From assembly GCF_053078305.1 (NCBI RefSeq), contig NZ_CP166879.1: 64,000 nucleotides of DNA, one strand, 5' to 3'. Position numbers: made by a program. Of this stretch, positions 27,001 through 33,000 are shown in pieces. Numbering within the stretch: the stretch's first letter is position 1; each line of letters starts with the position of its first letter.

Positions 27001-30000
27001 GTAACCTGAAAGGGGATGTGCAGCCAGGATGTTTCTGGTGGTGGTAAATCTGCCCACCTTTGAGAGCAGATATCGTCAGTCATGACGATGAAGGTTTCTT
27101 TATAACTGCGCCCTTTATTAACGGGCTTTTTCTGACAGCAACACCATGCTGTACTGGTGGTGTTTTAACCCTGACGGGAGTTTTTGTCCGTCGGGGCGAA
27201 GGCTCCCGTTTTTTTACAGGAGTCTTTATGTCAACGTTTATTTTGTGCCCTGAACCGGGCATCTCTTCTTTTTTCCGGCGAATGACGGCTCAGTTGCGGG
27301 TGTTTTTTTCCCGCAATAACCTGTCATATTACAGTCGCTGGTACACTAATCCGGCCGGCAATCTGAGCGTGCGGGTCTGTATGTTCCGTCGTGGCGGTGT
27401 CTGGACACCCTGCCTGTATTACCGGCAGGGAATGTATCGCAACGAGTACACAGGATGGTATCAGCCGTTACCGCGTGAGGTCATTTATCTGAACCGGTTT
27501 ACCGGACGGATATCCCGTCGCAGGACATGGCATGCTGCCTGCCGTATGGCGGAGCAACTGACCACCCTGCGTTACCGGTTTGGTCTGCAGGGTGATGGAA
27601 TCGTCGCACAGCCCTGCTGATTTATCATTTATTACCCTGTCGGGAACACGCTTCCCGCAGGGCAGGTGTGTTCCCGTTATTTTTTGTATCTGAGGTGAAC
27701 ACATGCATAGTCTGTTAATACTCCTTTACGTTGTTGTATGGCGTGCCTGCACCATTCTTCGGGTAATCGCACCAGTGTCGGCTGTCCGTGCGTGGTGTGA
27801 GTATCAACTGGAAGGTATGACGATACTTCGTGATGCGTACAGCTCGCTGGCTAAGGCGGCTGGAATGCAGAATGATGCATTTGAATATACTGAAAGTATT
27901 GCACGTCATCTGGGCTACAAAAGCGGTGGTGACCAACTGAAATCAGGACTTTTCCGGCCGTTTCTGTGGCATATACGTGTGAAAGGCCACAGGCTGGGGG
28001 CTGTCATGGAGATGGAGGCATGGAAGACATGGAAGAATGGCTGTAACGATGTCTGCAATCCATGGGAGGATGTCTGTAATCCATGGGAGCGTGGATGGAA
28101 CGATGGCTGGACGGAATGTCTGAATCAACGTATAGCCGGGCTCCTGAAGCAGGCCTGTATTGAATTTTCCGACGCAGACTGACGGGCAGGATGCCAGTCA
28201 GTCACAGGAAGGATGTCAAATCGTGAGCGATGCAACTGCCATTTTGCAATGATGGCTGTTTTGCTCCCGTAACGGTTTTTCTTTTACTTACTGCACCGTG
28301 TTTTTGCGCCGGTGTTTTCCCTGACGGGAGTTTTGTTCCGTCAGGGACAGGACTTCCTTTAAGAGACGGAGGTCATCATGTATTCACCTTTAATTGCTCA
28401 TTATTCAGCGCTTCAGACGCAGTCTGCTCTGCTGGCTCATATCAGTCAGATGGAAGGCGAGCTGATGCGGTTACGTGCCTGGCAACGGCTGGGTATTACC
28501 CCGGAGCCGGATGATGAGACGGAGCCTTCACTGGTATACGTGTATCTGTGGGATACCGGCGAGGCGCTGGGCTGGCTGTTGTATGACCTGGAGCAGGAGG
28601 AGATTTCCGCACCGGGAATTCAGGCCCGTCAGGCACTCGACAGTCTGATGGCTCTGGGGCGTGAAATTAATCATGAAATCTGGGCTGACAGTATCAGTAC
28701 CGGAAAGATGGTGGCCGGAGCGGATGAATATTTTGCCCGGCACGACATGATGTAATTCATGACCTGACTCTGACGGGGGAGTTCTCCGTCCGGGAGACAT
28801 TCCCCGTTGTTTAGTTTTAACCATGAGGAATGTTCCATGTCTGAGTTATCTTCACGTCCGGTCCGTGAGCCGGTGGTATATACCCTTGAGCAGGTTTCCA
28901 CAATACCGGAAAAGCAGTGGCATGCTTTTGTTCTGGCTGTCACTGAAACCTTCTGGCAGTTGCCGGAGGCGTTACGGCCGCAGAATGCGTATTTCGGCTC
29001 CCTGACCCGGGCGTCAGAGTTGTTTCCGGTAACGGACACGCTGGCGTTTTACTGCCGGTCTGCCGACGGGCTGTGGTCGGTGAATGTCACTATTGAGCGG
29101 GAGCACAGCCGGAATATCCTGGCTCTTAATGAGCTGAATTTCGGACGTCAGCCGGGAGATTTCTTTGCCCGTACAGTCTTTGTGCTGTTGCACAATCTGT
29201 GTCCGGACTGTTTTCGTATTCATTCCACTGTCGGTGGTGCCAGCTGGTCGCTGCCGCTGAAATGGATAAAACGGTACCTGGGGCATGAGAATTTTTCTGC
29301 TCCGGAGTCTGTATTAACCACCCCGGTAAGGGGAGATGCGTTTGACAGCTTACTGCTGCAGTTTTTGTCCGGTCAGGGGCGACAGTTATCCCCGGATGAC
29401 TGGGCAGCACTGGAAGAGGCCGAATATCAGCTTTACTGGCTGCGGGCTCTTGCCGGTGGGCGGTAACAGAACGCCGTAGTTTCTTTATCCGGAATAACGT
29501 CATCACGTATTCCGTCATTATATCACCCGGCAGGGACATATCCCTGTGGGGAGAGTCCCGGCTTTATTCAGGAGAATTGTTATGGGACTCGATATTTACT
29601 TTCTGGCTCGTGATAACCATCACAGTGGTGCCGTTGTGGGAACACAGGAACATCAGGAGGTGGGGGCTTTCCGTAAGGTGAAACCGCTTCTGACATGGTT
29701 TCGTGAACATACCGGTGCTTCAGATGAGCAGCATGCTTTCCCTGTAACCCGCAGTTCACTGGCTGCATTATTGCGCGACCTCAGTATGCTGACACCGGGG
29801 AACTGCCACAGGCTGTTTCCTTATGTCACAGGCTCGTGTTTACGGGGGGAAGATTATGCCGGTGATTACTGGTATGACGTGGATGACGTAAAAGCGTGGG
29901 TCAGCAATACGCTGAAGACGTTTGATTTTGAGCGTCGTTCACTGGTGATGCTGGCGTTGTGGTAATTCTGGCCAGTCTGATTTTCGTTATTAATTTAACT

Positions 30001-33000
30001 GTACGGTGCACTCTCACCGTACAGGGAGCGTGCATCTTTTTCAGGGGGCATGCTCTTATGAAAACGAAAAAACATACTTCACGTACCGCGATTAAAACTC
30101 CGGAACGTGACCTGTATCAGCTTGTGACCGACAGGGTTGTTACGGCCATTGAAAATGGTGTGCCACCCTGGAAACGTCCCTGGCGCTCTGCGCGTAATGG
30201 CGTGGGGCTTCCGGAGATGATGCCGGCAAATGCCCTGACCGGGAAGCCTTATACAGGGGTGAACGTCCTGTTGCTGTGGCTGGCCGCGGATGAAGCCGGG
30301 TATGTCAGCAATGACTGGCTGACGTACCGTCAGGCGCAACAACTGGGTGGCCACGTCCGTAAAGGGGAGGTGGCCACGCTGGCGGTGATTTACAAAGACT
30401 GGAAAAAACAGGCTGTGGATGAACACGGTAACCGGCTGACGGACAGTGAGGGGGAGCCTCTCATGGAAATCGTACCGGTACTGAAATCGAATCCTCTGTT
30501 TAATGTGGGGCAGTGTGACGGTTTACCTGAACATCTGATGGTGAAGGCGGAAGGCAGCGCGGATGCACTGCCGGCAGATACCTTCAGTGAGCGGGTGCTG
30601 CAGGTACTGAATGGCAGCGGCGTCAGCGTCTCGTCACTTCCACAGGACAGGGCATTCTACCGGCCTGATCTTGACCGTATCGTGATGCCACTGTCGTCGC
30701 AGTTTGACCAGGTGGCTGATTACTGGACCACCCTGCTGCATGAGCTGGTACACAGTACCGGTCATGAAAAGCGCCTGCGGCGGGTGGGGATAAGTACCTT
30801 TACCGGTCGCAAAAGCCCGGAATATGCGTTTGAAGAGCTGATTGCCGAGATGGGCAGTGCTTTTCTGTGTGCACATCTCGGGATTGCCGGTGACGTACAG
30901 CACGAAAGTTATATTGACGGATGGCTTAAGGTTCTGAAGTCTGACAAAAAAGCGCTGTTTCGCGCCTGCCGGCAGGCACGTGAAGCATCAGAGTATTTAC
31001 TGACGCGGCGAACTTCGCAGGAGTGCGCAGCATAATTTTTACTACCGGTGGCGGTTATAACCTGACCGCCATTTATCCCGTGAGGGCATTGTACCTCACG
31101 GGACAATGCCCTCTTTTTACATCTGTATAAAAAAGAGGAGCGTAAACAATGTCTGAATGGTGCAAAAACCGTTTTGAAATTACCGGTAAATCAGTCTGTC
31201 TTGATGTACTTACACAGTGGATTGAAGGGCGTGAGACCCCGCGCTACCGTCATGCCATACAGCAGAGTATACAGCTGTTTCTGGCCGGTTGTGCAGGGCT
31301 GGTAAAACCCACACGGACGACGCAGTATCCGCCATATCCGGCGCTGGTTCGTCAAGGAACGGGGTTGTCATCTCCGGCTAACCAGGCGTTTGAGCAGTGG
31401 CTGGGGTTGCTGGTAAAAAATGCCGTTCTGGATGGTGAAACGATAAAGACCATTGAGCGTCTTTATCACCAGTCATGTATCGGCGCTGTTCGCTGGGGTA
31501 ATCTGCCGGATAATGCCAGGGAGATCATCACCACGCTGATGAGCCGTCAGTATTCTGACTGGTTTGGTCTGGCCGGGCTGAGTGAACACATTGATGCAGA
31601 AGCCTGCTGGAGCTGGTTGTCGGATTACCCGGAACAGGCGCAGCCCTGTGACATGCTGATGGTCATACCCTCCCGTCTGGCTACAGAGCTGAATGGTTCA
31701 GGTGGACTGCTGCAGGGTATTTCCACAACGACCAGCCTTTACAGCCGGATATACGGTGTGGAGTGGCCGTCAGGAAATAATGTTCGCCATGCGCGTGATG
31801 AGATGAGCAGTCTGGTGCTGCTGATCGACACGCCCTGGTATCCGCCTTCAGGCGAACTGGTTGGTGAGATCTCGAAGGTGTTTGACTGCGAGGTCCGACA
31901 CTGGTACAGCGAGCCGGTACACGGTATACAGGGTTACAACTGTTACGATGGCGGAGAGCATACGGACAGTGATCTGCAGGCCGAATGGCCGGGCAGGGAA
32001 ACACTTCCACAGCCCCGACTGTACCTGGTGGAGGAGTGCGCTGAAGAACAGACGAAAGCCGCACCTTTACCGGTTCCTCTGGTCTCAGCCCAGTAATTAA
32101 CCTCCGGGTATCATGTCCGTGATGCCCGTTTTATCAACATTTCAACCCGAAGGGGAACACCTGTTCCCCTGTCCGGGCCATGTGTTCCCTGTTTTTACGG
32201 AGAAAACATGGCCACCATGACTGACCATCAGAAGGAGTTCATTTCGTTGTTTAACCGGACAGCCTGTTATCACAAACGTCATAAGGTGTTTGAAGACTTT
32301 GTCAGCTGTAGTGTGATTGCCCTGGAAAACCGGCTTCAGTTCAGTGAGGCCCGGGAACAGAAGTATCTGCGGATCGTCAGTGGTTATGAAAAGCAGGATG
32401 TTATCCACATTGCGCATTTGCTTGCTCATGTCATTGAGGGACTGGAGCAGGGATTCTGTGATTTTCTGGGCAGTGTGTTCATGCAACTGGAACTGGGGGA
32501 TAAATACCGTAGTCAGTTTTTCACGCCATGGAGTGTGGCCAGCATGATGGCACAGATGCAGATGGGGAATGTGAAGGCGTTGTTTGAGAGTAAACCCTTT
32601 ATCACGCTCAGTGAACCTGCCTGTGGTGCCGGCAGTATGATTCTGGCAATGGCTGACACCCTGAACCGTTCGGGGTATCCGGCATACCACAGGATGTGGG
32701 TGTCGGCAACGGATATTGACCCGCTGGCAGCCGGCATGGCGTATATACAACTGTCGCTGTGTGGTGTGGCCGGAGAAGTGGTGATTGGTAACTCGCTCTG
32801 TAATGAGCGACGCCGCGTACTGCTGACTCCCGGGCATTACCTGGGAAACTGGGACCATCGTCTGCGTCATCTTCAGGAGCAGAATGTGGCATGATGCAGA
32901 ATGTTTTATCACTGCGCCAGTCTTCGGACTGGCGTTTTGTTCAACTGCCAGTTCCCTGAATGTTTGATTTGTTCAATAAAGCCTGTTTATCAATAAATTT

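Follow-up and report, generated by a model that had tools for sequence, protein, structure and literature searches.

What do the small genes do that lie at 27228-32894 on the plus strand of NZ_CP166879.1 (NCBI RefSeq assembly GCF_053078305.1; all positions are those of the 64,000-nucleotide stretch analysed, hereafter the window), and how might their expression be controlled? The original prediction took them for seven co-oriented genes with short spacers, resembling the establishment (anti-defence) region of a conjugative element. Interval, strand and co-orientation hold, but near-identical E. coli loci annotated by RefSeq with its Prokaryotic Genome Annotation Pipeline (PGAP) have eight coding sequences (CDS; g1 to g8), and the spacers are not short (82, 195, 81, 115, 92, 113 and 111 nt), each of the seven containing a conserved structured element. 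As judged from sequence comparison, eight cassettes, shuffled independently of one another, make up the block as an array, and each consists of a structured leader, designated R1, and one open reading frame (ORF). The reading that we favour, with moderate confidence, is that of an establishment and anti-restriction array in the backbone of an ICE (integrative and conjugative element), whose cistrons are individually gated by RNA.

Gene block and its setting

The window is an MPF_G/MOB_H ICE of the SGI-4/YAPI/pEB102-like lineage, integrated at tRNA-Phe, and the location in a conjugative element that had been proposed is confirmed by type IV secretion system (T4SS) genes, a MobH relaxase, a tyrosine recombinase and tRNA-Phe (Table 1). 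When checked for matches to prophage structural or metabolic genes, none of the eight ORFs had any. All eight genes are preceded by a Shine-Dalgarno (SD)-like sequence and have protein-level homologues in other elements, with 31-94% identity. Relative to strain NC101, differences are in excess at third codon positions in g1, g4, g7 and g8, and non-synonymous changes are many in g2, g3 and g5. A match to the block was present in 92 of 5426 complete E. coli genomes, 32 of which hold at least 80% of it, and Shiga-toxin-producing E. coli (STEC) strains are numerous among the best-matching E. coli records listed. As a module, the gene block is of a known kind, and public genomes already have it annotated.

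R1 leaders

An R1 element of 65-80 nt lies before each of the eight genes, in the order a - loop - a' - b' - U-run - SD - ATG, and can form three mutually exclusive helices: a with a'; b, which is the 3' half of a plus the loop, with b' and then the U-run; and b' with the gene's own SD/AUG region. A covariance model (CM) of 34 leaders from five elements, aligned to one architecture, matched the window at exactly the eight start codons (36.6-51.1 bits; next best in the 64 kb with filters off, 13.5 bits). Five loci outside the training set yielded 22 more matches at E <= 0.01, none of them before uvrD, and in annotated loci these end two bases into the annotated start codon. Neither the plasmid regions checked nor the T4SS and cargo parts of related ICEs gave any R1 match. 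The same layout of leaders behind the RNA motif STAXI (see below) was present in nine further elements. R1 matched no family in Rfam 15 even at E <= 0.1, a literature search found no earlier description, and the leaders appear to be new as far as we have checked.

The helices leave their mark in the alignment and in pairing energies. The a:a' helix is paired in 84% of cells, compared to 71 ± 1% in shuffles, with 10 of its 11 pairs varying on both sides, and its covariation score (0.438 versus 0.204) was reached by none of 500 shuffles, slid controls remaining at or below 0.14. In energy permutation tests with 60 leaders, b' preferred its own start region over those of others in 22 of 24 clusters (p = 7e-8), b preferred its own b' equally often (22/24, p = 2e-7), and the control pairing gave no signal. 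Wobble counts favour the sense strand (38 G-U versus 13 A-C). Compensatory changes between the window and element L008 affect both a:a' and b:b' of the ardC leader, e6. An H-type pseudoknot with coexisting a:a' and b:b' was rejected as sterically impossible, with connecting loops of 0-1 nt, and the two helices were therefore treated as alternatives.

The minimum free energy (MFE) fold of all eight leaders in the window combines a:a' with a hairpin that buries SD and AUG, and opening it is calculated to cost 3-15 kcal/mol. When only the nascent RNA up to the U-run is folded, b:b', which has the shape of an intrinsic terminator, is favoured in 26 of 54 leaders, including those of g1, g2 and g4, a proportion that weakens the case for R1 elements as universal terminators. 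The strongest terminator-like hairpin of the eight is predicted in e1, before g1 (27173-27210, then T7), where it is the MFE structure of the nascent RNA (-25.3 kcal/mol). The region contains 25 terminator-like sites, compared to 9.4 ± 3.2 in shuffles. In SGI-4, the interval between STAXI and the first annotated gene contains an R1-like element (L003 4734-4804; 33.7 bits) whose terminator hairpin is strong; the annotation shows no ORF after it, and it may mark a missed small gene or be a leaderless terminator.

STAXI and the promoter of the block

STAXI (RF01728) is present in two near-identical copies ~2.2 kb apart, both covering model positions 1-153, the second of which (copy B) directly precedes g1. 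It heads the homologous block in 10 of 10 elements (the window and nine others), and the order STAXI-EFASI-int-STAXI is kept in nine of the ten, the stretch available for L009 not reaching the upstream unit. Upstream of 9 of 9 STAXI copies from five elements, at a short and constant distance, stand a TTGAC/TTGAA -35 box and a -10-like hexamer, and this conserved sigma-70-like promoter indicates that STAXI is the 5' end of a transcript. In a consensus scan, the promoter before copy B was the sole plus-strand promoter-like site near or within the block. Earlier work has linked STAXI both to MPF_G ICEs and to genes for anti-restriction proteins and integrases (PMC2864571; PMC5587801); its promoter-proximal placement appears to be new as far as we have checked. 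An RfaH ops site was considered and discarded, as GGTGGTAAATCTG at ~27041, after STAXI, departs from the ops consensus at two or three key positions. Both STAXI copies are overlapped by spurious reverse-strand ORFs, which are likewise duplicated.

ArdC, DUF1281 and five proteins of no known family

The original prediction of an ArdC-like gene with an intact HExxH motif is borne out. Over its full length, with the alignment beginning at residue 16, g6 matches R388 ArdC (PDB 6I89; 6.7e-60), and it matches Pfam ArdcN (PF08401; 2.5e-36), MPTase-PolyVal (PF18818; 8.9e-38) and phrog_7245, 'anti-restriction protein' (4e-81). Its HELVH (aa 228-232, nt 30739-30753) and an intact EE helix (FEELIAEMG at aa 258) are the counterparts of the R388 ArdC metal ligands H201, H205 and E229 (PMC7213743); by sequence, g6 is a genuine homologue of the anti-restriction protein of R388, with all metal ligands kept. 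R388 ArdC binds single-stranded DNA (ssDNA) and overcomes the HsdRMS of the recipient, and ardC expression is needed in the recipient, not in the donor (PMC7213743).

Besides ArdC and the methyltransferase-like g8, six genes remained rather than the five that had been counted as having no family, and one of them, g7, does have one: it matches Pfam DUF1281 (7.6e-75), DUF1281_C (a ferredoxin-like domain; 9.2e-13) and Api92, a protein of unknown function (PDB 2IJR; 3e-116). Homologues of g7 occur in more than 5000 plasmid records, mostly conjugative, and in the IncI/K plasmid pCT the leading region has DUF1281 next to ardA, ssb and psiB. ArdC (family 56) and DUF1281 (family 27) are both among the leading-region-enriched, T-strand-encoded plasmid families (Samuel et al. 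2024, PMC11541004, supplementary table). For g1 to g5, the lack of a family stands: none matched Pfam, NCBIfam or PADLOC, and g1 had no match in PHROG either. Homologues of g1 with 33-50% identity are encoded by SGI-4 (L003) and L008; a structural search with a model of g4 found no neighbour; and g5 has distant relatives in ~110-kb non-mobilizable plasmids of E. coli and Klebsiella, while a homologous-protein search with it returned close E. coli relatives only.

The methyltransferase-like protein g8

The original assignment of a methyltransferase fold to g8 holds for the fold alone, as the protein lacks the catalytic NPPY motif and strands 5-7. It has the S-adenosylmethionine (SAM)-binding motifs X (SQFFTP) and I (EPACGAG) and an aspartate as the acidic residue after strand 2, and among 69 diverse relatives F105, P137 and G140 never vary and Q103, T106 and P107 hardly do. 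At the position of motif IV, (D/N/S)PP(Y/F/W), g8 instead has T207-P-G-H, with T207 of this T-P-x-H invariant across the same 69 relatives, and the protein ends 21 residues further on, with no target-recognition domain. Its AlphaFold2 model (mean confidence score, pLDDT, 96.4) consists of a helical N-domain and only four strands, leaving the seven-stranded class I fold incomplete. The top fold matches (2F8L, 7VS4, 3LKD and 3KHK) are HsdM and other gamma-class N6-adenine methyltransferases, partially covered, with TM-scores of 0.2-0.3 when normalised to target length.

The module is a stand-alone unit of ~215 aa, and its family comprises 3872 clusters at 50% identity, with proteins mostly of 220-300 aa. 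ArdC-N is fused to it in phrog_23459, P0031, P0045 and P0047, and in P0031 the match to Pfam N6_Mtase (PF02384) covers model positions 24-117 of 311 only. P0086 combines the module with a separate, complete NPPF methyltransferase, suggesting that the module plays an accessory part and is not the catalyst itself. It is also found inside a 4104-aa polyvalent protein. Relatives of g8 are carried by 2211 plasmids, in one of which, an IncFII plasmid, the gene lies four genes from the origin of transfer (oriT), and family 53 of Samuel et al., 'hsdM-like DNA methylase' (median position 2 from oriT), is probably the g8 family. Sequence and model together make it unlikely that g8 is an active DNA methyltransferase; the half-methyltransferase reading appears to be new as far as we have checked, and it would make a widespread 'DNA methylase' of plasmid leading regions a half-enzyme and so probably not a methylase.

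A 227-aa methylase encoded beside DUF1281 in pCT was examined as a possible g8 homologue and proved unrelated. Some ArdC-N/g8 fusions match Pfam CbtA_toxin (P0031 residues 270-330, 1.4e-6, and one other relative). On the opposite strand, a 256-aa ORF (32142-32912) spans nearly all of g8; it is unannotated in any related genome and hence most likely due to chance.

The protein families also bear on where the proteins are made. Donor-made proteins might be shipped with the DNA through the T4SS, following the logic of polyvalent proteins but unfused, with no early expression in the recipient. pSa ArdC and RP4 TraC1 are reported to be transferred as proteins, and ArdC-N to serve as a 'header' domain (Iyer et al. 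2017, PMC5512222); the occurrence of the g8 module within a polyvalent protein, of the polyvalent-protein domain LPD29 in related blocks, and of the block next to uvrD-traI all point the same way. The requirement for R388 ardC expression in the recipient and not in the donor (PMC7213743) speaks against such delivery, which we consider unlikely.

Related elements and cassette mosaicism

An Integrase_1-family gene precedes the block also in Salmonella SGI-4, E. coli NC101 and E. coli G6/7, and the same arrangement recurs in a circular Citrobacter element, Pantoea/Erwinia plasmids, a Serratia plasmid and Rosenbergiella (a g7-based search of genome contigs gave two loci only, the wider sampling coming from plasmid and E. 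coli matches). In the cargo-free pEB102 and a Pantoea plasmid, uvrD-traI comes directly after the last block gene, which indicates that the block belongs to the backbone and that in E. coli and Salmonella cargo was inserted after it. The hairpin that closes the block in the window has an equivalent between the last block gene and uvrD in relatives. ArdC is absent from NC101, and g8 from the Citrobacter and Pantoea elements, while in G6/7 the gene order is shuffled and LPD29 and further genes are added.

The adjacency and co-orientation with uvrD-traI would also suit a block devoted to ICE DNA processing, replication or maintenance, accessory to the UvrD-like helicase and the relaxase, and not to anti-defence, as would the ssDNA binding of ArdC and the Integrase_1 recombinase encoded just upstream. 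This is difficult to reconcile with such variable content and shuffled order, with the non-synonymous changes piling up in g2, g3 and g5, or with the enrichment of the same families in leading regions of plasmids that have unrelated relaxases, and we regard it as distinctly improbable.

Some mosaic breakpoints fall at the edges of leader-plus-ORF units, as at 27169 and 27629-28182, which coincide with an R1 5' edge or a stop codon. This, the tyrosine recombinase gene that always precedes the array, and a:a' arms that vary in sequence yet stay complementary and, being 11 nt long with a spacer of 6-10 nt, resemble a recombinase core site, raise the idea of an integron-like platform on which a:a' hairpins serve as ssDNA-folded recombination sites for the Integrase_1 recombinase and so explain the shuffling. 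Against it, the ArdC indel (29971-31029) has ends that miss the hairpins by 20-40 nt and resembles an ordinary deletion, no conserved crossover motif was seen among the R1 elements, and the other two helices use the gene's own SD/AUG region and the U-run, that is, features that operate at the RNA level. Moreover, the upstream recombinase is a Pfam Integrase_1 protein with no NCBIfam match, integron integrase included. We give this idea very little credence. On the evidence presented here, all three alternatives are disfavoured relative to an RNA-gated establishment array.

Proposed mechanism and points that weigh against it

The establishment and anti-defence reading of the original prediction is thus partly supported: the ICE setting, the homology of ArdC and the leading-region-enriched families favour it, whereas g8 is unlikely to be an active DNA methyltransferase. 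The support for an anti-defence role is good in the case of ArdC, and for the remaining seven genes the role is inferred. It is based on the homology to ArdC, on the enrichment of ArdC and DUF1281 in leading regions as published, on the plasmid surroundings of g8 together with its ArdC fusions, and on the mosaic, fast-evolving nature of the array.

In the mechanism that we propose, the array would be transcribed as one unit from the STAXI promoter, and the R1 leaders would hold every cistron off by default, as their MFE folds, hiding the start region in 8 of 8, would suggest; in about half of the leaders, across all elements, a nascent terminator-like hairpin is predicted besides. A signal linked to transfer would lift the block, for which a terminator-resistant RNA polymerase (acting through the STAXI leader), an RNA-binding protein and ribosome traffic are candidates. 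The eight proteins would then act early, shielding incoming single-stranded or newly double-stranded ICE DNA from restriction in the recipient. ArdC would work as R388 ArdC does, against type I HsdRMS; g8 could be a non-catalytic look-alike of HsdM or a SAM-binding factor that interferes with type I enzymes; and DUF1281 and g1 to g5 may be additional counter-defence factors that evolve rapidly.

STAXI and the R1 leaders might even constitute an undescribed, purely RNA-based licensing system in which each cassette is double-locked until transfer. The STAXI leader would render RNA polymerase terminator-resistant; the ribosome-binding site would be free only where the R1 b:b' terminator had formed and been read through; and accidental read-through transcripts would refold into a:a' and b':start region and remain silent. 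Antitermination by STAXI in the manner of put or conAn would fit the anatomy. We hold the licensing scheme to be speculative and doubtful.

Several points weigh against the gated anti-restriction array. Early entry of the block into the recipient is an assumption. The block precedes traI in the same orientation, an arrangement also seen in F-like plasmids. The DNA between the block and uvrD, searched for a conserved inverted repeat resembling an oriT, contained only the terminator, and the leading-region status of the block consequently cannot be affirmed; nor was a single-strand promoter of Frpo type obvious (no Rfam or consensus hit, with no systematic search). Gating at the level of transcription would not be general, given the share of leaders predicted to terminate. 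STAXI as an antisense regulator of the leaders was rejected, since its complementarity to them does not exceed that of shuffled controls, with trans-duplex energies no better than for dinucleotide shuffles. Seven of the eight block proteins have no characterised homologue, and for R388 ArdC itself protease activity is dispensable and the mechanism still unclear (PMC7213743). The T-P-x-H of g8 could be a divergent catalytic loop. Finally, two overlapping ORFs (5715-6299 and 6283-7233) stand in place of an intact TraG-N conjugation gene, whose equivalent in JNEC-KY202 (L001) is annotated as frameshifted, and the present ICE copy may on that account be transfer-defective.

The analysis lists eight conserved genes as counter-defence candidates, of which five have no known family, and describes an RNA element predicted to gate each one, which provides an initial functional setting for the orphan STAXI motif, whose function has been under discussion since 2010. 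ICEs of this lineage carry subtilase toxin, adhesin and sialic-acid genes in STEC, and SGI-4 carries metal resistance in pandemic Salmonella ST34; success in establishment decides the spread of such traits.

Cargo and coordinates of features

Between the T4SS genes and the block lies a two-partner-secretion (TPS) locus (11345-22582, minus strand) for a 2981-aa haemagglutinin-repeat protein and a ShlB/FhaC-type transporter. The 175-aa ORF between the two TPS genes is named toxin-activating lysine acyltransferase by PGAP in relatives, and such a HlyC-type acylase is not commonly paired with a TPS exoprotein. Right after the block (33797-44493) come a second sialic-acid catabolism cluster (nanA-like, nanK, a major facilitator superfamily transporter, an esterase, a KdgM-type porin, nanM, nanR and nanS-like) and the subtilase cytotoxin genes subAB (43011-44493, minus strand); an adhesin gene is also among the cargo downstream of the block. 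At the equivalent insertion point SGI-4 carries sil/pco metal resistance, and the Citrobacter element an AAA-ATPase/DUF2357 pair. A full-length STnc100 small RNA (RF02076; 137 bits) lies within the ICE cargo at 47733-47935.

Table 1. Features of the gene block, its leaders and the surrounding ICE (positions in the window).
Feature	Position	Strand	Details
T4SS genes TIGR03756/TIGR03755	2953-5362		above curated cut-offs
Upstream promoter-like site	24560-24588	+	consensus scan
STAXI copy A	24603-24768	+	90.9 bits (gathering score 40.5)
EFASI RNA motif RF02957	25268-25425	+	Rfam match
Integrase_1-family recombinase gene	25553/25568-26470	+	Pfam Integrase_1
Small ORF	26503-26826	+	in upstream sister unit (24560-26826)
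Sigma-70-like promoter TTGACA-17-AAAAAT	26828-26856	+	consensus scan; 13 nt upstream of STAXI copy B
STAXI RNA motif RF01728, copy B	26870-27035	+	93.6 bits (gathering score 40.5); directly upstream of g1
R1 e1, before g1	27165-27230	+	CM 51.1 bits; a-loop-a'-b'-U7-SD-ATG
g1	27228-27620	+	130 aa, basic, aromatic-rich, no family; PGAP CDS in near-identical loci
R1 e2, before g2	27631-27705	+	CM 46.3 bits; MFE fold hides start region, opening 4.0 kcal/mol
g2	27703-28182	+	159 aa, no family, fast evolving; paralogue in NC101
R1 e3, before g3	28315-28380	+	CM 45.9 bits
g3	28378-28755	+	125 aa, acidic; phrog_22073 (unknown function)
R1 e4, before g4	28764-28839	+	CM 41.3 bits
g4	28837-29466	+	209 aa, no family, no fold match
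R1 e5, before g5	29521-29584	+	CM 36.6 bits; anti-start segment pairs with AUG and codons 2-3
g5	29582-29965	+	127 aa; phrog_7971 (unknown function)
R1 e6, before ardC	29994-30060	+	CM 44.2 bits; opening start region 14.6 kcal/mol
g6 = ArdC	30058-31035	+	325 aa; ArdC-N ssDNA-binding domain and zincin metallopeptidase domain
R1 e7, before g7	31072-31151	+	CM 45.9 bits; b:b' covaries, window versus L009
g7 = DUF1281/Api92 (YubB-like)	31149-32096	+	315 aa
R1 e8, before g8	32141-32210	+	CM 43.6 bits; opening start region 14.8 kcal/mol
g8 = HsdM-like half-methyltransferase (putative)	32208-32894	+	228 aa; PGAP name 'N-6 DNA methylase'
Terminator-like hairpin closing block	32914-32935	+	cargo DNA begins after hairpin
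UvrD-like helicase to ICE end	52354-56754	+	helicase, TraI relaxase, tyrosine recombinase, tRNA-Phe
MobH/PFGI-1-class relaxase TraI, TIGR03760	53891-55378	+	above curated cut-off
Tyrosine recombinase	55413-56483
tRNA-Phe	56679-56754	-	attachment site

Comparison with known systems

The ArdC of R388/pSa (IncW; PDB 6I89/6SNA) has the same two-domain architecture, HExxH motif and EE metal ligands as g6, and both reside in conjugative elements. Unlike it, g6 is one cassette of a STAXI-headed ICE array with a predicted RNA-leader gate, and is dispensable in relatives such as NC101. The leading regions of IncF/IncI plasmids (ssb-psiB-ardA-YubB-orphan methylase, with Frpo; Samuel et al. 2024) share with the block co-oriented small genes mostly of unknown function, ArdC, DUF1281 and methyltransferase-like genes, and mosaic content; the block, by contrast, lacks ssb, psiB and ardA, and the plasmid leading regions checked have no R1 or STAXI elements. 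As for g8, a helical domain at the N-terminus, motif X (GQFFTP), motif I (EPACGAG) and, past strand 2, an acidic residue are common to it and to HsdM and other gamma-class methyltransferases, but the protein stops after strand 4, has T-P-x-H in place of NPPY and is devoid of a target-recognition domain. Polyvalent proteins (Iyer et al. 2017) contain the same ArdC-N, MPTase-PolyVal, LPD29 and methylase-like modules, and fusions of ArdC with the g8 module exist, whereas in the block the modules are separate genes, each with its own predicted RNA gate.

For STAXI and EFASI (RF01728, RF02957; Weinberg 2010; Cury 2017), the window reproduces the association known from before, with anti-restriction genes, integrase genes and MPF_G ICEs. 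The STAXI literature leaves open whether it acts as RNA or DNA and gives no function (PMC2864571; PMC5587801); beyond this, the conserved promoter puts STAXI at the 5' end of a transcript, and an array of cistrons predicted to be gated follows. A structured RNA just after the promoter is also the arrangement of HK022 put RNA and of the pLS20 establishment operon with its conAn processive antitermination (PMC6294495, PMC8708921). The pLS20 operon moreover shares with the block establishment genes that include ardC and, as is predicted here, one promoter reading through multiple terminators; it differs in its Gram-positive host and unrelated sequences, and in that termination is predicted for about half of the R1 leaders and not for the rest.

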